A stretch of DNA of 64,000 nt from Thermoanaerobaculia bacterium. Lineage in GTDB: Bacteria; Acidobacteriota; Thermoanaerobaculia; Multivoradales; JAHEKO01. Under the pieces are notes generated by a model. That model was given only the letters and a program-made list of their open reading frames with translations, did not search any database and was not told the origin of the DNA. Below, in pieces: positions 3,092-64,000 of the stretch. Numbering within the stretch: the stretch's first letter is position 1; every line of letters starts with the position of its first letter. The stretch spans positions 11,120-75,119 of the forward strand of contig JBOGJI010000236.1 in NCBI GenBank assembly GCA_050747865.1, written 5' to 3'. A program made the translations under genes and the position numbers.

Positions 3092-3121
3092 TTGACACGC
3101 TCGCCGCCGACTCCATACACT
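3092..3121 (+). promoter_or_regulatory. sigma70-type promoter of groES-groEL (-35 TTGACA, 18-nt spacer, -10 TACACT)
   Basis: TTGACA at 3092-3097 and TACACT at 3116-3121, directly abutting the CIRCE element. This is the classical groESL arrangement. Confidence 0.5.
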
Positions 3122-3122
3122 G

Positions 3123-3149
3123 TTAGCAGTCGCCGCGGGTGAGTGCTAA
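3123..3149 (+). promoter_or_regulatory. CIRCE element (HrcA operator) TTAGCAGTC-N9-GAGTGCTAA
   Basis: Matches the TTAGCACTC-N9-GAGTGCTAA consensus with one mismatch. Lies between the promoter and the groES GTG start at 3223; the SD sequence GGAGGAG is at 3210-3216. Confidence 0.8.
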
Positions 3150-3222
3150 TGCGGTGACCGTGGCTTGGGACTCAAGTCAAGAGGGCAGAGCAACTTAATT
3201 CTATAGACGGAGGAGTCTGGCA

Positions 3223-3519: not shown

Positions 3520-5172
<1,653 letters not shown>

Positions 5173-9934: not shown

Positions 9935-12900
9935 ATGGACACGACGACCTTTCCCGTCCGGATCCCCCCACGGCCGGCCGACCTCGACCAGCGCCGGGCG
10001 GCGCTGGAGGAGGCGCTCACCCGACGCGTCCTGGTGCTCGACGGCGCTACCGGCACTGCGCTGCAGGCCGCCGAGCTGACCGCGGAGGACTTCGGCGGCG
10101 CCGAGCTCGAAGGCTGCAACGAGCACCTGGTGGCGACGCGACCGGACGTCGTGGACGGCGTCCACGAGCGCTATCTCGCCGCCGGCTGCGACATCGTGGA
10201 GACCAACACCTTCGGCGGCACGCCGCTGGTGCTGGCCGAATACGGGCTGGAGACCCAAGCCTTCGAGCTCAACCGCCTGGCCGCCTCGATCGCCCGCGCC
10301 GCCTGCGCCCGACACGACCAGCCGGGCCGGCCGCGCTTCGTCTGCGGCTCCATGGGACCGACGACCAAGGCGATCTCGGTGACCGGCGGCGTCACCTTCG
10401 AGGAGCTGGTCCAGCACTTCCGCATCCAGGCCTTGGGCCTCATGGCCGGCGGCGCCGACTACCTGCTGCTCGAGACCTGCCAGGACACGCGCAACATCAA
10501 GGCCGGGCTGCTGGGGCTCGACGAGGCGTTCGGAGAGTGCGGCTGGCGCCTGCCGGCGGCGGTGTCGGCGACCATCGAGCCCATGGGGACCATGCTGGCG
10601 GGGCAGGACGCCGAGGCCCTGGCGGTCTCCCTGCTGCACGCCGATCTCCTCTACCTGGGCTTGAACTGCGCCACCGGCCCCGACCGCATGACGGATCCCA
10701 TCCGCACGCTCGCCGAGCTGGCGCGCACCCGCGTCGCCTGCGTGCCCAACGCCGGGCTGCCCGACGACGAGGGGCGCTACACCCAGGGTCCGGAGGTCTT
10801 CCGCGAGGTGATCGGCCGCTTCCTCGACGCCGGCTGGCTCAACCTGGTCGGCGGCTGCTGCGGCACCACTGAGGCCCACGTGGCCGCCCTCCGCGAGCTG
10901 GTCGCCGGCCGCCGGCCGCGTGCCCTCCCGCATCACCAGCGCGCCTGGGTCTCCGGCCTCGAGGCCGTCGAGCTGACCGACGACAACCGGCCGCTCTTGG
11001 TGGGCGAGCGCACCAACGTGCTGGGCAGCCGCAAGTTCAAGAGCCTGATCGCCGAAGGCGACTTCGAGGGAGCGGCGGAGATCGGCCGCGCGCAGGTGCG
11101 CGGCGGCGGGCAGGTGCTGGACGTCTGCCTGCAGGACCCCGATCGCGACGAGCTGGCCGACGCCTGCGGCTTCCTCGACCAGCTGGTGCGCCTGGTCAAG
11201 GTGCCGCTGATGCTCGACTCCACCGACGCGGCGGTGATGGAGCAAGCGCTCACCTATTGCCAGGGCAAGGCGGTTCTGAACTCCGTGAACCTGGAGGACG
11301 GTCTGGCGCGCTTTGAGCGGGTGGCGCCGCTGGCCCGCCGCTTCGGCGCCGCCCTGGTCGTCGGCTGCATCGACGAGCAGGGCATGGCGGTGACCCCCGA
11401 ACGCAAGCTCGAGGTCGCGCGCCGCAGCCACGAGCTGCTGACCGAGCGGTTTGGCATCCCGCCCGAAGATCTGTGGTTCGACTCCCTGGTCTTCCCCTGC
11501 GGCACCGGGGACGAGACCTACATCGGCTCGGGCGCCGCCACCATCGAGGGCGTGCGCCGCATCCATGCCGAGTTCCCGCTGTCGAAGACGATTCTCGGCG
11601 TCTCCAACGTCTCGTTCGGGCTGCCCACCGCCGGGCGCGAGGTGCTGAACGCGGTCTTCCTCTACCACGCGACCCGGGCCGGCCTCGACGCGGCGATCGT
11701 CAACACCGAGCGGCTGGCGCGCTACGCGGAGATCCCGCGGGAGGAGCGCGAGCTCGCCGAGCGGCTGCTGTTCCTGGAGCCGGGGGACGTGGCCGGTAGC
11801 GAGGCCGCGGTGGCCGCCTTCGCCGAGCACTTCCGCGGCCGCCAGGCGTCGGCGGTGGCGGCCCCGGACCGCTCGCAGCTGCCCCTGGAAGAGCGGCTGG
11901 CGCGGGCCATCGTCGAAGGCACGAAAGCGGGCCTGGAGGAGGACCTGAGCGCGGCGCTCGCCGACGAGCGCTGGCGCGCGGCGCTGGACATCATCAACGG
12001 TCCCTTGATGGCGGGTATGGCCGAAGTGGGCCGGCTGTTCAACGACAACCAGCTCATCGTCGCCGAGGTGCTGCAGTCGGCCGAGGTGATGAAGGCCGCG
12101 GTGTCGTTCCTCGAGCCGCACATGGAGACCGTCGGCGGCCACAACCGGGGCCGCGTGGTGCTCGCCACCGTCAAGGGAGACGTCCACGACATCGGCAAGA
12201 ACCTAGTGGAGATCATCCTCTCGAACAACGGCTTCGAGGTGGTGAACCTGGGGATCAAGGTCCCCAGCGAGCAGCTCATCGAGGCGGTGCGGCGGCACCG
12301 GCCGGACGTCATCGGGCTCTCGGGGCTGCTGGTCAAGAGCGCCCAGCAGATGGTGCTGACGGCGGAGGACTTCCGCGCCGCCGGCCTCACCGTGCCGCTT
12401 TTGGTCGGCGGCGCGGCGTTGACACGCCGGTTCACCCACAAGAAGATCGCCCCGGCCTACGGGGCGCTGTGCACCTGGGCACGCGACGCCATGCACGGCC
12501 TGCAGCTCGTCGAGCGCATCGTCAACCTCGAGGCGCGGGGCGAGCTCGAGGCTGAGATCGCCGAGCTGATGTCCGAGGACCAGCAGGCGGGGGAGGCGCC
12601 GGCTCCCGTCGGCCCGACCCCCGGCGGCCGGGCGCCTTCGGTGCGCACCGACGTCGACGTGCCGGCGCCGCCGGATCTCGACCGCCACGTGGAAGAGCTG
12701 GACCTCGACGCCGTCTGGTCCCTGCTCAATCCGCAGATGCTCTACGGCAAGCACCTCGGCTTCAAGCGCTCGGTCTATCGCGCCGCCGACGAGGGCGACG
12801 GCAAGTACCTGCGACTCGCCCGCCTGGTGGAGGAGCTCCAGGAGCTGGGTCGGTCAGGGGCCCTCGAGGCGGCGGCCGTGTGGCAGTTCTTCCGCGCCGA

Positions 12901-50092: not shown

Positions 50093-50822
50093 CGCCCTCC
50101 CGCATGTCGTCGGTCGAGAAGCACAGGCAGAAGAGGTCCCGCTCGTAGGCCAGGCCGTCGGCGAGCGGCAGGCGCTCGGCGGCGCGCACCGCCTGCTTCG
50201 CCACCTTCAGGGTCAGCGGGCTCATGGCCGCGACCTTGGCCGCCAGGGCCAGGGTCCTCTCCCTGAGCTCGGCGGCCGGCACCACCATCTCGACCAGGCC
50301 GATCGATGCCGCCTCGACGGCGTCGATCATCTCCCCCGACAGCACCAGGCGTAGAGTCTGCCCGGTGCCGATCAGGCGCGGCAGGCGCTGGGTGCCGCCG
50401 CCGCCGGGGATCAGCCCCAGCTTGATCTCGGGCTGCCCGAAGCGCGCCGTCTCGGCGGCGATGCGCAGGTCGCAGGAGGCGGCCAGCTCGCAGCCGCCGC
50501 CCAGACAGAAGCCCTGGATCATGGCGATGACCGGCTTCGGGTATTCGGCCATGACGTCGAAGATGCGCGGGCTCGCCATGGCCTGGCGCTGGTCCATCGG
50601 CGTGCGGCCGTCGAACTCGCCGATATCGGCGCCGGCAATAAACGCCTTCTCCCCGGTGCCGGTCAAGACCACGCAGCCGACCGAGTCGTCCTCCTCGATC
50701 TCCGCCAGCAGCTCCAGGGCGCGGTCGCGCACCTCCTGGTTGAGCGCATTCAGCTTGTCCGGACGGTTGACGGTGAGGATCGCGACCCGTCCCTCCTGCT
50801 CTTTCAGCACCACGTCCGACAT
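50046..50822 (-). CDS. Enoyl-CoA hydratase/isomerase (crotonase) family protein
   Basis: 258 aa. Oxyanion-hole and catalytic motifs FIAGADI ... GGGCELAASCDLRIAAE ... KLGLIPGGGGTQRL. Confidence 0.85.
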   Translation of the reverse strand: MSDVVLKEQEGRVAILTVNRPDKLNALNQEVRDRALELLAEIEEDDSVGCVVLTGTGEKAFIAGADIGEFDGRTPMDQRQAMASPRIFDVMAEYPKPVIAMIQGFCLGGGCELAASCDLRIAAETARFGQPEIKLGLIPGGGGTQRLPRLIGTGQTLRLVLSGEMIDAVEAASIGLVEMVVPAAELRERTLALAAKVAAMSPLTLKVAKQAVRAAERLPLADGLAYERDLFCLCFSTDDMREGVKAFLEKRPAQWRGR

Positions 50823-50846: not shown

Positions 50847-51617
50847 TTAGCGATGGCGCCACGAGGGCGGCCGCTTCTGCCGGAAGGCCATCAGGCCCTC
50901 CTCCATGTCTTCGATCCGCGTGAGCTCCTGCAGATAGAGGCGCTCGCACTCGGCGACCGCCTGCCCGTGCGACTCTTCCTCGCCGGCGCGCACGGCCCGC
51001 TTGATGAGCCGCGCCACCGGCCGGCTGGCGGCCAGCAGCTCGCCGGTGAGCCGTTCGAGGCCGGCCTCGAACTGGCCGGCCGGGGCGAGGCGCTGGACCA
51101 TCCCGATCCGCGCCGCCTCGCGGCCGTCGAGCTCCCGTCCGGTGACCAGGAGATCGAGCGCGGCGCCGGGCCCGATCCGGCGCGGATAGAGGGCGGCGGC
51201 GTAGGGGGGAAAGCAGCCCAGCTTCACCTCCGGCTGGCCGAGCCGCGCGTCCTCCTCGGCCAGGACCAGGTCGCAGGCGGCGGCCAGCTCCAGCCCGCCT
51301 CCCAGGCAATAGCCTTGTACGGCGGCCAGGGTCAAGGCGGGCAGGGCCCGCAGGCGCTCCAGGGCGGCGTGGAAGCGGGTGAGCATCTCGGCAATGCGCT
51401 CGGCGACGTGGTCGTCGACCGCCACCCCGGCGGAGAAGGCGCGGGGTGAGGCGGAGCGCAGCACCAGCAGCTGCAGCTCGTCGTCGGTCGTCAGCTCGGC
51501 GACCGTGTCGCCCAGCTTTTGCAGTGTCGCGAGATCGAGGATGTTGAGCGGCGGCCGATCGAGGATCAGGGTCGCCAACCGCCCGTCCCGCTCCAGGCGC
51601 ACCGCCTCGCTCATCGT
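50847..51617 (-). CDS. Enoyl-CoA hydratase/isomerase family protein
   Basis: ~256 aa from MSEAVRLERDGRLATLILDRPPLN. GGGLELAAACDLVLAEE. The track ORF (to 52181) is 5'-extended through an alternative frame. Coordinates are +/-2 nt because of a local sequence/track discrepancy (see noticed_but_rejected). Confidence 0.75.
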   Translation of the reverse strand, partial: TMSEAVRLERDGRLATLILDRPPLNILDLATLQKLGDTVAELTTDDELQLLVLRSASPRAFSAGVAVDDHVAERIAEMLTRFHAALERLRALPALTLAAVQGYCLGGGLELAAACDLVLAEEDARLGQPEVKLGCFPPYAAALYPRRIGPGAALDLLVTGRELDGREAARIGMVQRLAPAGQFEAGLERLTGELLAASRPVARLIKRAVRAGEEESHGQAVAECERLYLQELTRIEDMEEGLMAFRQKRPPSWRHR

Positions 51618-55951: not shown

Positions 55952-56136
55952 TCCTCGAACAGCGGGTTGAATGTTGGAACTAGGGTTTCAGCAACTGGGC
56001 CCTGAGCAGCCCGGCTTGAGAGCCATTGTGTCATGGCACCGGGCGGTGCGGCAACCGAAGCGGATACCGTCAGCAACGGTTCGCGAGGCGTGATACGGCG
56101 TGTTGAGGGCTTCGATTCCCTGGCGCGGGGCGGATG

Positions 56137-57414
56137 TCACGCCAGGACCTGCACCTCGGGGATGGCGACCACGAACTGGCCTCCCCATTCTTGTACGCCC
56201 GACATCTGCTCGACCACCTCGTCCCTGAGGTTCCAGGGCAGGATCAGGATGTAGTCGGGCCGGGTGTCGAAGATGCGCTCGGGCGGATGGATCGGAATGC
56301 GTGTCCCGGGGAGCAGGTGTCCCTGCTTGTGCGGCGAGATATCGACCGTGTAGTCGAGGGTCTCGACCCCGATTCCGCAATAGTTGAGCAAGGTGTTCCC
56401 TTTCGCCGGAGCGCCATAGCCGACGATGCGTTTACCTTCCCCCTTTGCCTTTGCCAGGAAGCCCAGGAGCTTGCGCTTGGTCGCCCGCACCCGCGCGTCG
56501 AAGGCGCGATAGGTCTCGAGGTCCGCGAGCCCGAACGTCTCCTCGCGCGCCAGCAGCTCGACCACCCTCTCTCCCCCCTGCCCGGGCTCATCGTCCGCTC
56601 CCTCGCCGGCGCGCCGCGCGTAGATGCGCAGCGATCCGCCATGGGTATGTAGCTCCTCGACGTCGAACACTTCCAGCCCGTGATGCGCGAGGACCCGGCG
56701 CACCGTGCCGAAGGAGAAGTACGAATAGTGCTCGTGATAGATGGTGTCGAACTGATTCTCCGCCATCAGCCGCATCAGGTGCGGGAACTCCATCGTCAGC
56801 ACGCCTTGCTCCGCGAGCACGGTGCTCAGGCCGCCGACGAAGTTGTTGAGGTCCGGCACGTGAGCCAGCACATTGTTGCCGATCAGGAGATCCGCCCGCC
56901 ACCCCTCGGCCGCCAGCTCCCGTGCTATGGCCTCGTCAAAGAAGCGCACTCGCGTCGGGACTCCCGCCTCCTCCGCCGCCCGCGCGACGTTCGCCGCAGG
57001 CTCGATACCGAGCACGGGGACGCCGCGATCGCGGAAGGAGCGCAGCAGGTAGCCGTCGTTGCTCGCCACCTCCACCACCCGTGACGTGGCGTCGTAGCGG
57101 AAGCGCTCGATCATCGAATCGACGAAGTTCTGCGCATGCTCGAGCCACGTGCGCGAATACGAGGAGAAATACGCGTATTCGCTGAACAGCTCCTGTGGCT
57201 TCAAGACCTCAAGGATTTGTACCAGGTAGCAGGAGCCGCAGACATAGGCGACCAGCGGGTAGAAGACATCGGGCAAGTGCGCCTTCTCGGGTGGCACGTA
57301 GGCATTCGCCGGCGGCGACAGCCCCAGGTCGGCGAACGTCTCGGTCAACTCGGCGCAGCAGAAGCGGCAAAACTTCTCGATCACAACCACAAAGTTACAA
57401 CTACGACCAAGCAA
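56137..57414 (-). CDS. Zinc-ribbon C-methyltransferase (Methyltransf_13/14 family, NDP-hexose C-methyltransferase-like)
   Basis: N-terminal CxxC...CxxC (CRFCCAEL ... CGSCYLVQ), a class I SAM-MT core (VVEVASNDG) and the C-methyltransferase C-terminal domain. The probable true start is GTG at 57384 (M-IEKFCRFC) rather than the track TTG at 57414. Confidence 0.65.
   Translation of the reverse strand: MLGRSCNFVVVIEKFCRFCCAELTETFADLGLSPPANAYVPPEKAHLPDVFYPLVAYVCGSCYLVQILEVLKPQELFSEYAYFSSYSRTWLEHAQNFVDSMIERFRYDATSRVVEVASNDGYLLRSFRDRGVPVLGIEPAANVARAAEEAGVPTRVRFFDEAIARELAAEGWRADLLIGNNVLAHVPDLNNFVGGLSTVLAEQGVLTMEFPHLMRLMAENQFDTIYHEHYSYFSFGTVRRVLAHHGLEVFDVEELHTHGGSLRIYARRAGEGADDEPGQGGERVVELLAREETFGLADLETYRAFDARVRATKRKLLGFLAKAKGEGKRIVGYGAPAKGNTLLNYCGIGVETLDYTVDISPHKQGHLLPGTRIPIHPPERIFDTRPDYILILPWNLRDEVVEQMSGVQEWGGQFVVAIPEVQVLA
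57383..57403 (-). promoter_or_regulatory. Direct-repeat motif copy 1 (minus strand TAGTTGT-N7-TGGTTGT; start codon GTG formed by the last heptad)
   Basis: Plus strand ACAACCAcaaagttACAACTA. See the findings section. Confidence 0.4.
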
Positions 57415-57464
57415 GGGTCAAGAGCCGATGGACGCGAACGCGTGCCGCGGTCACGGTCTCGCGC

Positions 57465-59282
57465 TCAGCCGCCGTCAGCCGGGTGCCGACCCATCAGAAC
57501 GGGGTGCTGTCGGCGCTCCCTTCGGGCAGCACCTCTTCGGGCACCTTTTCGGGGATCGATCGGCTCCGGGAACGTCAGGGCCAGCCGAAGGTTCTCGAAG
57601 AAACGGTGACGATTGAACACCTTCCGCTCGATGACCTCGATGCTGGCCAGGTTGGCGCTCACCCAAGGCGGCGCGATGCCCGACTCGACGGCCCGCCGGA
57701 ACGACCCGATGCGCGGACGGTTGTCGGCCGCGAGCTCGATGTGACCGATGGCCCGCGCCATCGGCACGAGGTCCCACTTGTGTCCAGGCCGGTCATGCGG
57801 CACCTTGGCGCGCGCCAGGAACGGCTCCGTCAGGCCGAGACTGTGTATGGCCCGTTCCTGTGCTCGGCCGTAGAGCCCCGCGCACCAGAAATCGACCACG
57901 AGCCCGCGATGCGGCGGCTGCGCCGCCGACACGGCGGCCTCGCGGTACGACGTCTTCCTATCGACCTTGTCGCAGCCGCCCCACGGCGGACACGCGAGGT
58001 CCGGGTGATGGCGATGAGCCGCGGCATCGTTGATCAAGACCGGCCTCCGGCTGGGCCCCTTGTCGGGTCTCACGACCTGGATCGGGGACCCGAGAGTGCC
58101 GAGAATCGGATGGCGATCGAGCTGACGCGGGTAGCGCGTGAAGACGGCGCCCATCACCAACAGCGCGGCGACGACTGGTGCGACACGCGGCACGCGCCAG
58201 CGGATCCGGGCCACGAGGTGCTCCGGCAGCCCGGCCGTAGCCGCCACGGCGAGGCAAACCGGGAACGCGAGATAGCGATAGTGCCGAGAATCCCCACCGA
58301 TCTTGACGACGAAGGCCGTGACCGAGGCCGCGAGACAAATCAGCACGACACGCTCGGGTAGGTGCAAGGGCGGCCTCGCGAAACCGCGCCGTGCGGCGGC
58401 GCGATCGCTCCACGCGAGCAGCCCGAAGCCGGTCGCGGCGGCGCCGAGCAGCCAGTGCAGGCCGTAGGCGTTGGCCGTGTCGAGGAGATAGACCACACCC
58501 TGCCGGAGCAAGTTGACGTTCTTCAGATAGAAGGTGTTAGGCAGCAGCTCGGCGTAGTACCAGATGCGCAAGGCGATCCAGGTGCCCGTCGTGAGCAGCG
58601 TCGAGAGCAGGAGGGCCCAGGGCACCCGCCGGGTGCGCCAGCCGCACCAGGCCACGAGCAGCAGCCATGGCACCGCCAGCTCGGGCCGAACCAGCGGACC
58701 CAGGCCGGCTGCCAGCTGCGGCCAGCGATCCTGAGGGCGAAACACGACGAGTGCGAACACCGCCGCCATCACTTGCACGAGGGGAGTCTCGACGCCCGAG
58801 GTGAAGTAGCAAAGCACGGCGTAGTTGGTAGCCAGAAGCAGCAGCGGCAAGGAGAACGGCGCGACGCCCTGCGGCGCCACATGGCGGTTGACGCGCACGA
58901 GCAGCGCCCAGAACGCCACGCATGACAGCACGCCCAGCACGCGGACGGCGAGCCACCACCCAGAACCGACCGCCCTCGCCACGAGGAGCGTCAGCATCCA
59001 GAGAGGGCTGCTGAACCCCTCGACGTATTCGCCAGCGTTGTAGACCAGGCCGCGGCCCGCATAGAGCGCGTTGTCGACGAAGCGAAAGTAGACGAACGAG
59101 TCGTCGATCAGCCAGGAGTACTGAACGGTCAGGACGACGAGCACGAAGAGCGCCAGCCACTCCGCCGCCGTCCGGCGCAGGCGAGGCGAGCTCGGGGCCA
59201 GGTCGGGGCGGCCCCCGTCAATCATCGAAGCGTGCGAGCGGGTTGTTGCACGGTGTGATGGACGGGGCGTAGAAGCCGACAT
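57465..59282 (-). CDS. Polytopic membrane protein, possibly GT-C-like, with a C-terminal soluble domain and conserved tail
   Basis: 605 aa. ~10 TM helices in the first ~330 aa. First-loop acidic motif LIDDSFVYFRF. The C-terminus ends RRQHPVLMGRHPADGG. The start may be the internal MIDGG. Confidence 0.35.
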   Translation of the reverse strand: MSASTPRPSHRATTRSHASMIDGGRPDLAPSSPRLRRTAAEWLALFVLVVLTVQYSWLIDDSFVYFRFVDNALYAGRGLVYNAGEYVEGFSSPLWMLTLLVARAVGSGWWLAVRVLGVLSCVAFWALLVRVNRHVAPQGVAPFSLPLLLLATNYAVLCYFTSGVETPLVQVMAAVFALVVFRPQDRWPQLAAGLGPLVRPELAVPWLLLVAWCGWRTRRVPWALLLSTLLTTGTWIALRIWYYAELLPNTFYLKNVNLLRQGVVYLLDTANAYGLHWLLGAAATGFGLLAWSDRAAARRGFARPPLHLPERVVLICLAASVTAFVVKIGGDSRHYRYLAFPVCLAVAATAGLPEHLVARIRWRVPRVAPVVAALLVMGAVFTRYPRQLDRHPILGTLGSPIQVVRPDKGPSRRPVLINDAAAHRHHPDLACPPWGGCDKVDRKTSYREAAVSAAQPPHRGLVVDFWCAGLYGRAQERAIHSLGLTEPFLARAKVPHDRPGHKWDLVPMARAIGHIELAADNRPRIGSFRRAVESGIAPPWVSANLASIEVIERKVFNRHRFFENLRLALTFPEPIDPRKGARRGAARRERRQHPVLMGRHPADGG

Positions 59283-59583
59283 ACGAAATGAGGCGGGATT
59301 CGTCGGCGTCGAACCTGAAGAAGTCGGTCGAGAGCAGAAACTGTGCCCGAACGCGATCGGGCCACCGGTCGCGTCCGGGCAACCGCCCGACGTAGCGCCG
59401 ATAGTCCGTCTCGAACGCGTCCAGCGCGGCAGGATCGAGGTTCAGATATGCGAATGCGGCTTGCCTCGCCTCGTCGCTTTCCGTTGGTGACGCTCGCCGG
59501 CGCCTCCATAGCGACACGCCGAGAAGCGGCACCCCGACGGCCACGCCGAGCAGCTGCAGGAGACGGCGGCGAGTGAGCGCCAT
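59218..59583 (-). CDS. Small Tat-signal protein (candidate hitchhiker/small subunit of the adjacent GMC flavoprotein)
   Basis: 121 aa. Twin-arginine signal MALTRRRLLQLLGVAVGVPLLG. The ATG lies 1 nt after the GMC stop (translational coupling). Confidence 0.4.
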   Translation of the reverse strand: MALTRRRLLQLLGVAVGVPLLGVSLWRRRRASPTESDEARQAAFAYLNLDPAALDAFETDYRRYVGRLPGRDRWPDRVRAQFLLSTDFFRFDADESRLISYVGFYAPSITPCNNPLARFDD

Positions 59584-59584
59584 G

Positions 59585-61042
59585 TCAGGCCGCGCCTCCG
59601 GACCTCAACAGCTTGTCGGCCGCTCGCAGAGACAGCGCCGCGATCGTCAGCGTGGGATTGGCCGGCGCCGCGGTCGGAAACGTGCTGCTGCCCAGGACGA
59701 GGAGATTGCGAACGCGGTGGTGCACGAGGCCGGCGTCGACGACGCCGTCCGCGGCAGTGCGTCCCATCGGGGTGGTGCACTGGATGTGGGCTTCGGTCGC
59801 GCCCCGATCGCGCCAGATCTCGAACCGCTCCACCGGCAGAGCGGCGAGCACGCGCGTCAGATTGGCTGCGAGCGCGGCGATGCCGCGCTCGGCATACGCG
59901 GAGTGGCGCTTGAACTCCACTGCCGGCTGCTCCGCGTCGGCATCGTCAACGGTGACGCGATTGTCGGCCTGCGGCAGATCCTCGTAGATGAACTGCAAGT
60001 GCAGCTGCTCGCGCCATCTGCCCCGTTCGTGCCGGAGCTCCGGGACGTTCCAGGTCTCCATCATGGCGGCCGCGCGATCGCGTCGATGATCGCCGCCGTA
60101 CAGCATGTAGCCAAGGCCCGTGATGCTGGTGCTGCCCTGGAAATTGTCGACTCCGTCGAGCATGACGTCGACCGCGACCGAGACCTGTTCGACGAGGCCG
60201 CGTCCGACCTTGTCGTCGGTCAGGTCCGATCGCAGGAGGAGGTAGGGGTTGAAGATCGCGTTCGCCCCAAGGCCCGCGAGCTCCGTGGGGACGAAGTGGT
60301 CGGCGCCGCCTCGCCGGTAGCGGATCCCCGTCAGCGTGCTGCCGGCGACTTCGACGGCTTGGACATGTGCGCCCGTGAGCAGCGTGACACGCGGATCCCG
60401 ATAGAGATGCGTCAGCTCATTGAGAATGGTGAACTTCGAGTCGATGGGGCACTTATGGCAAATCCCGTTCGCACAGCAACGCGGACGGCCCGAAGGCAGT
60501 GCGCGGCTCGGACGCGCCGCCGGCTGCTGAAAGAAGCGATCGGGGAAGTGCCGCTTGAACAAGCGATCGGGATCGGTGAAACGGTGCGGCGGCAGCGGGT
60601 AGGGACGGCTGCGCGGGTATGGCGAGCCGTCGGCGGGACCCGAGACCGCCATGATCTCCTCGGCGTCGCAGTAGTACTCCTCCAGATCCTCGTACACCAC
60701 GGGCCAGTCGCGACCGACTCCGTATAGGGAATGAAGGCGGAAGTCCTCGGGCAGCATACGCGGTGTGCACGCCCACCAGCAGTTGGATCCTCCGCCGAAG
60801 GCCAGACGAAACGTCCACTTCTTCCACGGGCTGCGGTTCCGGAAGCTCCTGTCGGCCGCTCTTCTGAGTCCACGGTCGTGCTCAGTGTGCCATCGATGGG
60901 AGTACATCTCGCCGCGCTCGAGCACGAGCACGCGGGTCCGGCGGCCGGCCCGTTCGAGATACCGGTGCAGGAAGAACGTCGCGGCGAACCCGGTGCCCAC
61001 GAGTACGAGATCGTAGGCGCCTTCTAGCATGGATACAACCAT
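59585..61042 (-). CDS. GMC-family FAD-dependent oxidoreductase
   Basis: 485 aa. N-terminal Rossmann motif DLVLVGTGFAA. GMC C-terminal domain (HIQCTTPMG, LLVLGSSTFPT, NPTLT). Confidence 0.8.
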   Translation of the reverse strand: MVVSMLEGAYDLVLVGTGFAATFFLHRYLERAGRRTRVLVLERGEMYSHRWHTEHDRGLRRAADRSFRNRSPWKKWTFRLAFGGGSNCWWACTPRMLPEDFRLHSLYGVGRDWPVVYEDLEEYYCDAEEIMAVSGPADGSPYPRSRPYPLPPHRFTDPDRLFKRHFPDRFFQQPAARPSRALPSGRPRCCANGICHKCPIDSKFTILNELTHLYRDPRVTLLTGAHVQAVEVAGSTLTGIRYRRGGADHFVPTELAGLGANAIFNPYLLLRSDLTDDKVGRGLVEQVSVAVDVMLDGVDNFQGSTSITGLGYMLYGGDHRRDRAAAMMETWNVPELRHERGRWREQLHLQFIYEDLPQADNRVTVDDADAEQPAVEFKRHSAYAERGIAALAANLTRVLAALPVERFEIWRDRGATEAHIQCTTPMGRTAADGVVDAGLVHHRVRNLLVLGSSTFPTAAPANPTLTIAALSLRAADKLLRSGGAA

Positions 61043-61055
61043 ATTGTTACAACCA
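61035..61055 (-). promoter_or_regulatory. Direct-repeat motif copy 2 (minus strand TGGTTGT-N7-TGGTTGT, 4 nt before the ATG)
   Basis: Plus strand ACAACCAtattgttACAACCA. See the findings section. Confidence 0.4.
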
Positions 61056-61118
61056 AAAGCTTACAAAGAAAGCGCGAAACCGGGACGGGGCGAGCGCCCC
61101 GCGCTTGCGGTGTCGCGC

Positions 61119-61730
61119 TCAGCCGCCGTCGCGGGAGTGCCGACCCATCAAAACGGCGTGCCGTCGCCGCTCGCTGTCGAGGGCTCGGCCTCGATCGCTG
61201 ACGAACGCGAGGATCTCGCGCATGTCGAGCACTAGAGAGAGCGCAGGCGTCTCCGGGCGCGTCAGAATGTGGGCCAGGTCTTTCTGGTTGCGGATGCAAA
61301 TTGCGCGCTCGTGGACTACGACGTAGCGCGCCGTCTCGAGTTCCCTGTCGACCTGCTTGAGCGTGTCCAGCAAGGAGCGCAGCGTCGCCACCGACACGCC
61401 CTGCTCCCGTAGGGAGCGGGCGATCCGCAGGCGGAGGACGTCGGCGAACCCGTACCGGCGCTCCCGCCCCCTGCCCCTGCCGGCGCCCTTGAAGACGCTC
61501 GGCCGCAAGAACCCCGTACGGCCCCAGGAATCCACCGTGAAAAAGGGAACGTCGCTGAGCCACGCCGCTTCCCGCGAGGTGAATCCCTCGCCGCCGTCTT
61601 CTCCGCCTGACCTCGCCGGCGGGGTCGCTTCTTCGGCTGTCGGTCCGGTTCGCCTCATCGCTCCCCGAGACGAGATGTTCGCGGTGGCATCTGCACCATC
61701 GTATCGCCAGCATACAGGAGCCCGCCACAC
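61119..61730 (-). CDS. MerR-like HTH transcriptional regulator with conserved C-terminal tail
   Basis: MerR-type HTH (FTSREAAWLSDVPFFTVDSWGRTGFLRPS...RRYGFADVLRLRIARSLREQGVSVATLRSLL). Likely start at MRRTGP. Ends RRRHAVLMGRHSRDGG. Confidence 0.5.
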   Translation of the reverse strand: MWRAPVCWRYDGADATANISSRGAMRRTGPTAEEATPPARSGGEDGGEGFTSREAAWLSDVPFFTVDSWGRTGFLRPSVFKGAGRGRGRERRYGFADVLRLRIARSLREQGVSVATLRSLLDTLKQVDRELETARYVVVHERAICIRNQKDLAHILTRPETPALSLVLDMREILAFVSDRGRALDSERRRHAVLMGRHSRDGG

Positions 61731-61742
61731 GTCCGGCCGGCT

Positions 61743-63878
61743 TCACGGTTGGATCTCCAGCCAGACTGGCGAGGTCCACGCGCGCACCGTGCGGCCACGG
61801 GTCGGCTCCGACAGTTGTGCACGCAGGTAGTAGATGACCTCGCCCGAGCTGCTGTCGAGCCGATCGACGAACCGATCGTCGAGGAGGCGGTCGATCTCCC
61901 GCCACTCCTTGGCCACTTGCCATCCCGCCTCGGGATCTGAGAAGCGCATCAGCTGAGCGAGCTCGATCTGTCCGGCGGCTGCCAGCAGGACGCGGCCGTC
62001 GGGGTCGCTGCCACATCTGCCGGTACCCCCCATGGGGGTTCCCGAAACCTCGAATTCGAGATAGATCCGCCGGCCGGTCGTGGCGTAGGTCCGACGAGCC
62101 ACGATGGCGTCGAAGATGGCCTCTCGTTCCAACCTGGGGGCCAGCACGGCGGTCAACCCGGCGTGAGGCTGGCCCGGCTGGGCCGTGTGGTTGTCGCTGC
62201 CGGCCACCGTGCCGACACGGTGGCCGAGGGCCCAGGCGTCGCGGGCGTAATGCGGTCCGGGCTGGGGATGTGACGGCAGGTAGCCGACCTTGTTGTATGC
62301 CAGGGCATCTTGGGGGTCGTCGTATTCGGAGCTGCCGTGCAGCGAATAGATCTCGAGGTTGGGCCGCAGCTCGATCGCGGTCGGTCCGGGCGGGCGCCAG
62401 TCTACCCACGGACCGTGCCGGCGTCGTTCGTAGGGAGGTGGCGGGCCCAATCCCGCGTGCCGCACGATCCTCGGCCAGCTCGCCGCGGTGGTGCGACCGA
62501 GGTGGTGGGGGATGGTGAAGGCCGTACCCGGCTCGAGCCGTTTCCACAGATTGGCCACCGACCCGAGGCGTCGTGGGTTCCACGGCACGCCCTCTTCCGA
62601 GCGGAAGTAGACGCAGTGGTGCCCGTCGTGGAACGTGCACTCATAGCCCAGGAGGGTGACGAAGCGTCCGGGGTCGTAGAAGCGCCGCACGCGCCGCCGG
62701 ATCGTCTGCCACTCCTGGGGTGTGATGCCGTCTTTCTCGCGGCGCCAGTTCACGTCGTCCTCGGAGTGCTCCGTCGGTGCCAGGAAGTCCAGGCGGGTGA
62801 TGTCCCGGGCATATCGGAAGTCGTCGTGCCCGACCGCGTCCTTGCTGATCGCGGAGTGGGAGTGCAGGTCCCCCCAGAAGATCCGTTCGGCCGGCGGTTT
62901 CGCATACACTCGGATCGGGTCCCCAGCGATCCGCCGCTCCGCTTCGCCGCCTTCCGCGGCGAGACGCAAGACGGCGACCGGCCAGTGGAAGCCGGTCCGC
63001 CGCGGCACCCATCGGAAACGCACGGCTCCGCGCTCCAGGGCTCCGGCGCTGGGCGGGAGCGCGGACGCGGCGAGACCGGCGGCGACGACTTTGCCGCGGG
63101 CGCGAGCCAGGTTGGCGAAGCGGTCGAACACGGTGAGCTGCAGCTCGACCGCTTCTCCGACGACCACCTGACTGGGTCCGAACAGGGCGAAATCCGTGGC
63201 CGCGGCCGCGTCGACCCGGTAGCGAGCAGGGCGTGGGAGCAGCCGGTACGCACCCTCGCCGCTGCGGTCCACCGCCGCCCGGATGGAGTCCTCGCCCGCG
63301 AGGTAGGGGGCCGTCGTGTTGTGCAGCGTGAGCCGGACTTCGTCGCCGGCGCGCAGATGGCCGCCCTCCACCGTCACCGCGGCGATGTGCGGATACCGCG
63401 TCGTCTTACCGTCGAAGTTGCGCTGCTGCAGCTTCACGTCGAGCTCGACGTCGGCACGCGAGGCGGCCGCCGACACGAAGTGGGCGGCGCCCGGTTGTAC
63501 CTGCTGGAACGGCTTCGGCCACGGGTAGAGCTCCGCGAACCAGGCCTTAGGGAGGTCGAAAAGCAAGCCGCCGGCCGTGGCGATGCCTCCCGCGCCGACC
63601 GTGAAGTGCACCGTGTAGGTCCCCACCTGGGCAGCGGTCATGTGGTCGGGCTCGACGCGGATCGCCCCTGTAGCGGCTCCGATGACCAGGCGCGAAGGGG
63701 TCGGCTCGAAGGCCTCGTCGAGTCCTTCCGCCAGCACCACGAGCTCCCCCTGCCGACCGCGATCGTCGGAGTGCCTGGCAGCGAGACCTCGCTGCACAGG
63801 CCGCCAGACCAGCAGGGTGATCGTCAAGAGGCCGGCCAGGACCATCGCGGCCCGCAGGCTGCGAACAAAGCGCGACAC
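61743..63878 (-). CDS. DUF3604 / PHP-like metal-dependent hydrolase domain protein with N-terminal signal-anchor and beta-rich domain
   Basis: 711 aa, GTG start. N-terminal TM MVLAGLLTITLLVW. The C-terminal ~400 aa carry the PHP/DUF3604 metal motif FWGDLHSHSAISKDA and further His/Asp clusters (PTEHSEDD, IPHHLG, GSDNH). Confidence 0.6.
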   Translation of the reverse strand: MSRFVRSLRAAMVLAGLLTITLLVWRPVQRGLAARHSDDRGRQGELVVLAEGLDEAFEPTPSRLVIGAATGAIRVEPDHMTAAQVGTYTVHFTVGAGGIATAGGLLFDLPKAWFAELYPWPKPFQQVQPGAAHFVSAAASRADVELDVKLQQRNFDGKTTRYPHIAAVTVEGGHLRAGDEVRLTLHNTTAPYLAGEDSIRAAVDRSGEGAYRLLPRPARYRVDAAAATDFALFGPSQVVVGEAVELQLTVFDRFANLARARGKVVAAGLAASALPPSAGALERGAVRFRWVPRRTGFHWPVAVLRLAAEGGEAERRIAGDPIRVYAKPPAERIFWGDLHSHSAISKDAVGHDDFRYARDITRLDFLAPTEHSEDDVNWRREKDGITPQEWQTIRRRVRRFYDPGRFVTLLGYECTFHDGHHCVYFRSEEGVPWNPRRLGSVANLWKRLEPGTAFTIPHHLGRTTAASWPRIVRHAGLGPPPPYERRRHGPWVDWRPPGPTAIELRPNLEIYSLHGSSEYDDPQDALAYNKVGYLPSHPQPGPHYARDAWALGHRVGTVAGSDNHTAQPGQPHAGLTAVLAPRLEREAIFDAIVARRTYATTGRRIYLEFEVSGTPMGGTGRCGSDPDGRVLLAAAGQIELAQLMRFSDPEAGWQVAKEWREIDRLLDDRFVDRLDSSSGEVIYYLRAQLSEPTRGRTVRAWTSPVWLEIQP

Positions 63879-63897
63879 AACCAGATGTTTACAACCA
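63877..63897 (-). promoter_or_regulatory. Direct-repeat motif copy 3 (minus strand TGGTTGT-N7-TGGTTGT; start codon GTG formed by the last heptad)
   Basis: Plus strand ACAACCAgatgtttACAACCA. See the findings section. Confidence 0.4.
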
Positions 63898-64000
63898 GCG
63901 GCGCGGGTGAGTCAAGCAACGGGAGCCTTCGCACCGGGTATAGTGTCCCAGGGGTCCGGACAATGGGTGACGAAGCTGCGCCACGGCGCGAGACGAGAGG

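Follow-up and report, generated by a model that had tools for sequence, protein, structure and literature searches.

Gene arrangement and the repeated block

The window (the whole 64-kb stretch of DNA analysed) carries a minus-strand gene cluster with the order DUF3604, merR, GMC oxidoreductase, a 121-aa gene, a GT-C-like membrane protein and a C-methyltransferase. A short block of sequence is present twice in this cluster: copy B precedes the GMC oxidoreductase gene and copy A precedes the C-methyltransferase gene, each being followed by a direct-repeat motif described below. The two copies are direct repeats around a 3.65-kb segment containing three genes. The genes and the repeated elements are:

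61119..61658 (ORF to 61730), minus strand: MerR-like regulator gene, 179 aa as called
61099..61175, minus strand: block copy B (parental type); the MerR-like gene's own last 17 codons and stop, plus about 20 nt of its 3' flank
61030-59585, minus strand: GMC oxidoreductase gene, ATG start
57465..59282, minus strand: ORF of the GT-C-fold membrane protein, 605 aa from the first ATG
57529..57553, minus strand: 12-nt tandem repeat, 2.1 copies; encodes the linker GARRGAARR, which joins the native DPRK end to block A
57445..57521, minus strand: block copy A (derived); its first 54 nt close the GT-C-like ORF (last 17 codons and stop), and ~22 nt follow the stop
57384-56137, minus strand: C-methyltransferase gene, GTG start

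An earlier note on this DNA had pointed to a repeat shared by the two gene ends, and the repeat is real. The 77-base piece of copy A, 3.65 kb from copy B, survives exact realignment with 84.6% identity over 78 columns with one gap (blastn, 57445-57521 against 61099-61175, E = 6e-18); a repeat search of the window gave an ungapped match of 82 nt at 80% identity (57440-57521 against 61094-61175). The global alignment score of the block is 52, a value reached in 0 of 2000 shuffles (mean -2.5, sd 4.2), and the 20-nt core GTGCCGACCCATCARAACGG has two exact copies in the window, with 0.02 expected. The block is sharply bounded, the adjacent DNA of the two copies being now unalignable: likeness between A and B is at the level of shuffles both in the 50 nt 5' of the block (p = 0.28) and in the 41 or 43 nt that separate it from the motif (p = 0.48). 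An independent assembly (L006) has the same gene arrangement, and both its blocks are identical to those of the window.

Both ORFs cross the block in the same frame and end at the same TGA (57465-57467 and 61119-61121), so that the membrane protein and the MerR-like protein do carry the same C-terminal tail, ERRQHPVLMGRHPADGG and ERRRHAVLMGRHSRDGG, in which 12 of 17 residues agree, VLMGRH and DGG among them. The lengths of 605 and 203 aa first attributed to the two proteins need revision, as gene callers use an internal Met in each and give 586 aa (start at 59225) and 179 aa; in an exact look-up, the 605-aa form was not on record and the 586-aa form led to L006. A TGA is found inside the block in all three frames; therefore, every ORF that enters the block ends inside it, and the common frame of the two ORFs requires no selection. 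Plus-strand coding was also considered, since three ORFs cross the blocks on that strand, and was rejected, their frames differing between A and B.

The similarity had been thought to reach only about 12 nt past the stop codon, and its actual reach is about 20-25 nt, with 19 of the first 25 positions identical. Upstream of the stop 44 of 54 positions are identical, and the nine base changes of this coding part are distributed 4/2/3 over the three codon positions, with no bias towards the third. Synonymous differences had been read as a hint of selection on the peptide; only two of the six changed codons are synonymous, however, the other four being non-synonymous. Because identity is comparable before and after the stop, most codon changes are non-synonymous and the changes are spread over the codon positions, the similarity is, on this comparison of two sequences, at the nucleotide level and not at the peptide level. 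In a strain of 99.93% identity only two SNPs were seen over 3 kb, and one of them replaces the final residue of the tail (G to D, turning DGG into DGD).

The number of copies is low: two were found in 69 kb of the source genome (the 64-kb window and a 5.2-kb extension from L006). A scan for the exact core in 596 Gb of reference genomes and JGI metagenomes, two collections that do not include the source genome, returned one chance hit in each, with unrelated flanks. A search of the 42-residue concatenated tails against 5.8 billion proteins had no matches; it also failed to recover the two known carriers, and is thus uninformative.

The two gene ends and their orthologs

The MerR-like protein matches PF13411 (MerR_1) with E = 1.8e-09, above the gathering score, and has the N-terminal MerR-type helix-turn-helix; its best solved relative by sequence is Alr3614/CvkR, at E = 0.016 only. 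At its C-terminus, the pattern S[ED]R[RQ]RHxxLxGR occurs at the same position in the two closest orthologs (P0002 and P0003, 67-68% identity). Of the tail, these close orthologs keep just RxRHxxLxGR; orthologs at greater distance terminate before it. At the nucleotide level, the merR 3' end of one relative (L001) aligns to window positions 61157-61215 and so overlaps block B by 19 nt. Copy B is collinear with the 3' coding sequence of the merR orthologs, hence it is not an insertion, and the alignments indicate that the tail is native to the MerR-like gene.

The opposite is found for the membrane protein. Except for three whose longer tails are unrelated, its orthologs end 3-10 residues past a conserved IDP, and none of the 14 aligned orthologs (43-70% identity) has the tail; thus, the ortholog check proposed earlier finds the tail, in part, on the regulator side only. 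Relative to these orthologs copy A is extra sequence: the native end of the protein is ...FPEPIDPRK, beyond which 26 codons have been added. Since the tail is present in merR orthologs and missing from membrane-protein orthologs, copying would have proceeded from merR to the membrane protein gene. The closest membrane-protein relative among those compared is 70-71% identical and has a different gene order.

The junction between the native end and block A is formed by the 12-nt tandem copy of the native DPRK codons, and a tandem repeat in this position is typical of slippage or illegitimate recombination. The annotated linker frame has a GC3 of just 33%, which is due to the repeated unit gat-ccc-cga-aaa. 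Another reading of the linker and of the start of block A was considered, in which the minus-strand frame is shifted by one base and encodes EKVPEEVLPEGSADSTPF followed by a stop, with a gene-like GC by codon position of 0.72/0.44/0.83; in this frame a stop lies 26 codons upstream. A frameshift at CCCCGAAAAGG may be an alternative for this region; the two assemblies agree on the sequence, and the shifted frame was not adopted.

No Pfam or NCBIfam match was found for the membrane protein. Its AlphaFold model (pTM 0.80) shows an N-terminal multi-helix membrane domain and a C-terminal soluble domain, the architecture of the GT-C fold. The top Foldseek match is AftB (E = 8.7e-07, TM 0.52-0.56), followed by ALG9, ArnT, EmbB/C, AftD and OST/PglB. 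Fold comparison of the model therefore supports the GT-C-like label that the protein had received in the earlier note, and the protein can be described as glycosyltransferase-like by predicted fold. The C-terminal domains of GT-C enzymes face the periplasm. The two tails would thus probably sit in different compartments, that of the membrane protein on the periplasmic side and that of the regulator in the cytoplasm. In the model, the tail has a pLDDT of about 40-58.

The direct-repeat motif and predicted RNA structures

Each block lies 41-43 nt upstream of a TGGTTGTAA direct-repeat motif located at the start of the next gene. The motif occurs three times in the window, with 0.00 expected, at the starts of three transcription units. 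Leaderless messages are suspected. The motif copies, the TTGAC[CT] sequences and the predicted hairpins that follow the two stop codons are:

57382..57403, minus strand: motif TAGTTGTAACTTTGTGGTTGTG, 41 nt past block A, running into the GTG start codon of the C-methyltransferase
57416-57421, minus strand: TTGACC (-35-like), preceding the motif next to block A
61034..61055, minus strand: motif TGGTTGTAACAATATGGTTGTA, 43 nt past block B, ending 3 nt short of the GMC oxidoreductase ATG
63876..63897, minus strand: third motif copy TGGTTGTAAACATCTGGTTGTG, in front of the DUF3604-merR genes; TTGACT at 63910-63915
57440..57462, minus strand: predicted small GC-rich hairpin directly after the stop of copy A
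61094..61116, minus strand: predicted equivalent hairpin after the merR stop of copy B, with a moderately T-rich stretch behind it

Just upstream of motif TGGTTGTAACAATATGGTTGTA there is a third degenerate repeat, TTTGTAAG. The third motif copy has no block associated with it.

The motif recurs in relatives, where it adjoins a MerR-like gene in three of the four inspected. The merR divergent regions of L001 and L009 contain three copies each, while in L016 its only three occurrences in 11 kb all lie within about 85 nt (17-82 nt) upstream of a merR ortholog of 51% identity. The block was absent, by blastn, from the motif-bearing regions of these three genomes. Because of this position beside the MerR-like gene in three of four relatives, the motif is probably the operator of the MerR-like protein, which would use it to control the cluster; it is also more likely than the block to be the functional part of the repeated region. 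The motif is a direct repeat and not a dyad, and it overlaps the -10/start region, 12 nt after TTGAC[CT]; it therefore differs from the usual MerR-family arrangement of a dyad in the 19-20-bp spacer between -35 and -10. A promoter and terminator scan of positions 56000-64000 returned no sigma-70-type site and a single terminator-like site, which lies outside the block.

Two other kinds of site were considered. A sigma-54 promoter in the block was rejected by eye, GGCAC-N5-TGAC being present in A and missing from B; an integron attC-like site was rejected, the motif GTTGTAA being unlike GTTRRRY and no integrase being present.

As to RNA structure, a two-sequence consensus fold places a hairpin after the stop in both copies with one compensatory pair, two sequences being too few to support a covariation argument. 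This hairpin is possibly a terminator or a 3'-end hairpin, a prediction with no statistical support: the RNA structure check that had been proposed gave fold energies no better than shuffles for either copy on either strand (z from -1.0 to +1.4), and Rfam had no match in the window at gathering thresholds. Copy A has neither inverted termini nor a palindromic body, and copy B contains just an internal 13-nt pair of 77% identity.

Origin of the shared tail and comparison with known systems

Block A is probably what remains either of a duplicated segment comprising the merR 3' end and a promoter, or of a merR paralog that has been lost, and it has become joined in frame to the membrane protein gene. 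It would then be a relic that copies the last part of the MerR-like gene, the stop codon included, together with ~20-25 nt of the adjoining 3' flank. Two routes can be envisaged: a segment of about 140 nt (merR end and promoter/operator) may have been copied in front of the methyltransferase gene, or a second merR paralog may once have stood there, and a deletion may have joined its last 17 codons to the membrane protein gene. In either case the membrane protein gene would have lost its own stop, and its ORF would now cross the 12-nt tandem repeat into the block and end at the merR TGA, the merR frame having been entered by chance, a one-in-three event. The shared tail would probably be a by-product, without function of its own. 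No intermediate state, such as a second merR before a methyltransferase gene, was found; the membrane-protein orthologs of L007, L013 and L015 have no downstream methyltransferase gene.

Local duplication was the third of the explanations proposed earlier, and it fits best; it need not be recent, as had been supposed, the copies differing by 15-20% and their flanks being unalignable. A plain recent duplication would be expected to decay evenly, whereas the block is kept at ~81%, the spacer is dissimilar and the motif is conserved at 41 vs 43 nt. This mosaic conservation suggests that, once duplicated, the block stayed under constraint for a while, in a working merR paralog or as a functional element. 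Motif A is no nearer to motif B than to motif C; for this reason, the co-duplication of promoter and block is not proven.

The same mosaic, a conserved block next to a random spacer, would also be expected if the block were a functional nucleotide module (a terminator/insulator or an upstream regulatory site) tied to the MerR-controlled promoter and selected at both sites, with the ORFs merely running into it. The equal identity of coding and post-stop parts, the nearly constant distance to the motif and the post-stop hairpin with its compensatory pair agree with this proposal, which is nevertheless unlikely: the third motif promoter and the motif regions of L001, L009 and L016 do without the block, the fold energies are at shuffle level with no Rfam family, and no terminator-like or sigma-70-like pattern falls within it. 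A smaller chance still is given to the possibility that the block is a selected module obligatory with the MerR-controlled promoter (a 3'-end or terminator plus an upstream site, against read-through), or that the tail mimics the regulator C-terminus in the membrane protein; it is retained because the block is far better conserved than the spacer and its distance to the operator motif is kept.

Two further proposals had been made earlier, and both fare poorly. Some short mobile repeats are known to extend over the 3' ends of genes and to contribute in-frame residues, and the block could belong to a dispersed family of this kind (REP-, MITE- or RPE-like), inserted at two gene ends, the 69 kb of source genome being the whole sample examined. 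Yet that sample holds two copies only, each public collection gave one hit by chance, terminal inverted repeats and palindromic structure are missing, and copy B is orthologous merR coding sequence, which makes this origin highly improbable. Least credible is a functional peptide, i.e., a sorting, degradation or partner-docking signal common to the regulator and the membrane protein. The common frame and the 12 identical residues speak for it; against it stand the lack of the tail in the 14 membrane-protein orthologs and the earlier end of the more distant merR orthologs, the equal similarity of coding and non-coding parts, with no third-position bias and no excess of synonymous change, and the strain variant DGD. 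The remaining four cluster proteins end differently, none of them carrying the tail; the tail is modelled with low confidence, and a GT-C fold with AftB as best match predicts a C-terminal domain in the periplasm, while the regulator is cytoplasmic.

The shared tail thus looks like an ordinary relic of local duplication, a case of ordinary genome tinkering. In itself it matters little. It illustrates clearly how one gene can acquire the end of another by rearrangement nearby, so that unrelated proteins seem to have a signal in common, and it is a useful caution for annotation and motif hunting in GC-rich genomes, where lost stops give long extensions. More useful is a by-product of the analysis, the TGGTTGTAA motif at three promoters of the gene cluster (GT-C, GMC oxidoreductase, DUF3604, C-methyltransferase); as it is also found upstream of MerR-like genes in several Thermoanaerobaculia, a class without cultured members, it is a candidate operator for a regulator family that is still uncharacterised.

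Among known systems, the proposed relic resembles the general mechanism of gene-end extension by stop loss: the native stop is gone and the ORF continues into foreign DNA until the first in-frame stop, the added residues are missing from orthologs, and a short tandem repeat marks the junction. It differs in that the captured DNA is the end of the neighbouring regulator, so that two unrelated proteins of one cluster end alike. Rickettsia palindromic elements, Correia, REP and MITE sequences are also short nucleotide repeats which, within coding sequence, give residues to unrelated proteins; those elements, however, are multi-copy and palindromic or bounded by inverted repeats, while here two copies are seen, inverted termini are missing and one copy is native coding sequence. 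Identical short C-termini on unrelated proteins are likewise known from the ssrA tag, PEP-CTERM, LPXTG and GlyGly-CTERM. Such signals occur on many proteins, are conserved among orthologs and mostly come with a hydrophobic helix; in contrast, the tail described here is basic, has no hydrophobic stretch and is found on two proteins only, being missing from orthologs.

For the regulator, the comparison is with BldC-type MerR-like proteins, which bind direct repeats in a head-to-tail manner (PMC5859096). Here too a MerR-type helix-turn-helix protein is putatively associated with direct repeats, not inverted ones, at promoters (TGGTTGTAA, 2-3 copies). Unlike BldC, which consists of 68 residues with no further domains (PMC5859096), the present regulator has 160-180 residues and a conserved C-terminal half.

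A repeat across two stop codons

In the part of the window that holds the cluster, every gene is on the minus strand, according to an ORF listing, Pfam and NCBIfam scans, and the genes called on an independently assembled sequence of the same organism; the membrane protein has no Pfam or NCBIfam match. Source names on identical or related proteins identify the host as a Thermoanaerobaculia (Acidobacteriota) MAG.

Genes of the cluster
63878 (or 63845)-61743, minus strand, DUF3604 / CehA-McbA-like metallohydrolase
61658-61119, minus strand, MerR-like regulator (merR)
61030-59585, minus strand, GMC oxidoreductase
59583-59218, minus strand, 121-aa protein
59225 (or 59282)-57465, minus strand, membrane protein, 586/605 aa
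57384-56137, minus strand, C-methyltransferase

The membrane protein and the MerR-like regulator were reported in an earlier note to share a C-terminal tail, encoded by a repeat of about 80% identity running over the stop codon, and the similarity persists on realignment. A repeat search of the window returned a direct repeat of 82 nt at 80% (57440-57521 and 61094-61175), and blastn gave 84.6% identity over 78 columns (57445-57521 and 61099-61175; E = 6e-18); the alignment score was reached by none of 2000 shuffles, and exact matches to the 20-nt core number two in the window, where 0.02 would be expected. Both ORFs traverse the repeat, named block A in the membrane protein gene and block B in merR, in the same frame and stop at the same TGA, giving the C-termini ...ERRQHPVLMGRHPADGG and ...ERRRHAVLMGRHSRDGG. 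An assembly artefact is excluded, since a second assembly, L006, which matches the window at 99.9% over 12.9 kb, shows this arrangement too, and neither block differs there from its counterpart in the window. It is sharply bounded: neither the 50 nt 5′ of the block (p = 0.28) nor the spacers 3′ of it, of 41 nt in A and 43 nt in B (p = 0.48), are more similar between the copies than shuffled sequence.

Over 12.9 kb, L006 departs from the window in 13 places, which form clusters. Five lie at 63898-63950, in the promoter of the DUF3604 gene, and touch a -35-like hexamer and bases just 5′ of a motif described below; four more lie in a 48-nt stretch of the GMC gene (60030-60077) and another three in 52 nt of the membrane protein gene (58488-58539). 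Such clustering is suggestive of short recombination tracts or a mixture of strains. No repeat in the window is longer than an inverted one of 104 nt (2761-2864 and 10261-10364; 88% complementary, arms 7.4 kb apart), and a 101-nt direct repeat (50416-50516 and 51217-51317; 75% identity, 801 nt spacing) lies inside two adjacent enoyl-CoA hydratase-like ORFs, which are probably tandem paralogs.

Native and derived copies

Members of the MerR-like family are common across Thermoanaerobaculia (83 matches in a protein search) and mostly end soon after a conserved ...RARAL... stretch. Two orthologs, the closest ones at 67-68% identity, run on with SDRQRHAHLTGR... and SERRRHGRLVGR..., sharing RxRHxxLxGR with the window protein; in a DNA alignment, L001, the locus of a relative, matches window positions 61157-61215 with the 3′ end of its merR gene, reaching 19 nt into block B. 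Block B is thus native to merR. The family of the membrane protein is likewise widely distributed (425 matches in a protein search), with hundreds of members across several phyla and names on the matches including Phycisphaerae, Myxococcales and Binatia. In 14 aligned orthologs (43-70% identity) the conserved sequence ends ...LALTFPxKIDP and the proteins stop 3-10 residues later, except three with unrelated longer tails; the HxVLMGRH tail is found in none of the 14, and DNA homology to the orthologous genes ends at ATCGATCC. Block A is thus the derived copy, giving the membrane protein a 26-residue extension.

The native end of the membrane protein gene, gat-ccc-cga-aaa (DPRK), is followed by two diverged copies of the same 12-nt unit, which encode the linker GARR-GAARR, and then by block A; TRF places a tandem repeat of 12-nt units at 57529-57553 (2.1 copies, 92% matches). 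GC3 is 0.85 in the gene body versus 0.33 in the linker, the low value being inherited from the repeated unit gat-ccc-cga-aaa. Slippage repeats are common at illegitimate-recombination junctions. The junction is identical in two assemblies, with no sign of sequence error. In the frame shifted by one, the linker and the start of block A (57494-57571, minus strand) read EKVPEEVLPEGSADSTPF-stop, with gene-like GC by codon position (0.72/0.44/0.83), and a frameshift at CCCCGAAAAGG would join this frame to the membrane protein.

Three explanations had been offered for the shared tail, namely a C-terminal recognition tag, a small repeated element and a local duplication, and only the last is retained. 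In all three minus-strand frames a TGA lies inside the block, which terminates any ORF running into it; the chance of landing in the merR frame was one in three. Identity does not drop past the stop (44/54 in the coding part versus 19/25 in the first 25 nt after it), and the synonymous differences once read as compatible with peptide selection concern only two of the six changed codons, the nine base changes of the coding part falling 4/2/3 at codon positions 1/2/3. In L012, a third assembly from the same species (99.93% identical over 3 kb), one of two SNPs turns the last merR codon from GGC to GAC (G to D), and AlphaFold assigns the extension pLDDT values of about 40-58. Selection on the peptide is not indicated by any of these results. 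The AlphaFold model of the membrane protein (pTM 0.80) matches GT-C glycosyltransferases, best the mycobacterial arabinofuranosyltransferase AftB (E = 8.7e-07, TM 0.52-0.56 over full length), followed by ALG9, ArnT, EmbB/C, AftD and OST/PglB, and the protein (57465-59282) is thus predicted to have a GT-C fold. Since the C-terminal soluble domain of GT-C enzymes faces the periplasm or lumen, and the regulator is cytoplasmic, a docking or degradation partner common to both tails is unlikely.

A dispersed element is likewise unsupported in the sequence covered. Across the 64-kb window and a further 5.2 kb past its end, available from L006, the block has two copies, and an exact scan for the core found one site each, with unrelated flanks, in reference-genome and JGI metagenome collections that do not contain the source genome; these are chance matches. 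Terminal inverted repeats and Rfam matches were not found in the block, and the proposed RNA structure check gave no folding better than shuffles on either strand; a small hairpin directly after the stop, with one compensatory pair, is predicted in both copies, and in two GC-rich sequences it carries little weight.

Direct repeats at gene starts

Past the spacer lies a second, shorter similarity, the 22-nt motif T[AG]GTTGTAAC-N5-TGGTTGT, which has a third copy with no block 5′ of it.

Copies of the motif
57382-57403, minus strand, at block A, its end coincides with the methyltransferase start codon, GTG
61034-61055, minus strand, at block B, stops 3 nt short of the GMC start codon, ATG
63876-63897, minus strand, third copy, upstream of the DUF3604-merR pair

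The motif is a direct repeat of TGGTTGTAA, with 2-3 units spaced 13-14 nt (32 nt in L016), at the starts of three transcription units, and of four relatives inspected, three (regulators 51-68% identical) have it beside the MerR-like gene. L001 (merR 67% identical) has three tandem units (5027-5066) between merR and a neighbouring divergent operon, 12 nt after TTGACT, as at the third motif site of the window, and promoter B, the region at the GMC start, aligns to this divergent region (83% over 42 nt). L009 (68%) has three degenerate units in the equivalent region and a second triple downstream of merR, in convergent orientation (the two triples at 2362-2400 and 3110-3150). In L016 (51%), GGTTGTAA occurs just three times in 11 kb, at a spacing of 32 nt (4583-4656), each time 17-82 nt upstream of the merR ortholog; in L017 (46%) the motif was not found. 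Being kept beside the regulator gene across this divergence and marking three transcription units, the motif is most simply a candidate operator of the MerR-like regulator, a member of an uncharacterised family. The methyltransferase start (57382-57384) lies at the motif end and the GMC start (61028-61030) within 3 nt of it, neither with a Shine-Dalgarno sequence, which suggests leaderless or near-leaderless mRNAs.

Origin of block A and known systems

The explanation adopted here is that block A is a relic of merR 3′-end sequence. The cluster is often rearranged in relatives, where duplicated modules are possible, L001 having two GMC modules around one merR; no methyltransferase gene was found adjoining the membrane-protein gene in the relatives examined, so it probably joined the cluster within this lineage. 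A segment of about 140 nt, comprising merR end, hairpin, spacer and operator/promoter, may have been copied in front of the methyltransferase gene. Alternatively, that position may once have held another merR paralog, with a promoter of its own downstream, before a deletion took out the DNA from the stop of the membrane protein to the last 17 codons of the paralog. The second route accounts better for the mosaic conservation: the block would have been preserved for as long as it was coding, the spacer would have been free to drift, and the operator would have been kept by function; it would also explain TTGACC, present in promoter A, at the methyltransferase start, and absent from promoter B. 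No intermediate state was found among relatives, and both routes stand. That the block is itself a selected cis module is improbable, an idea kept in view by its much better preservation than the adjacent spacer and its constant distance to the operator motif. Block A and the shared tail are a fresh instance of a well-known kind of event.

The best solved relative of the MerR-like protein by sequence is Alr3614/CvkR, at only E = 0.016. Classical MerR regulators use a dyad inside a long -35/-10 spacer, whereas the direct repeats found here, if bound as predicted, would set this protein apart. In this feature it would resemble BldC, which binds direct repeats head-to-tail (PMC5859096).
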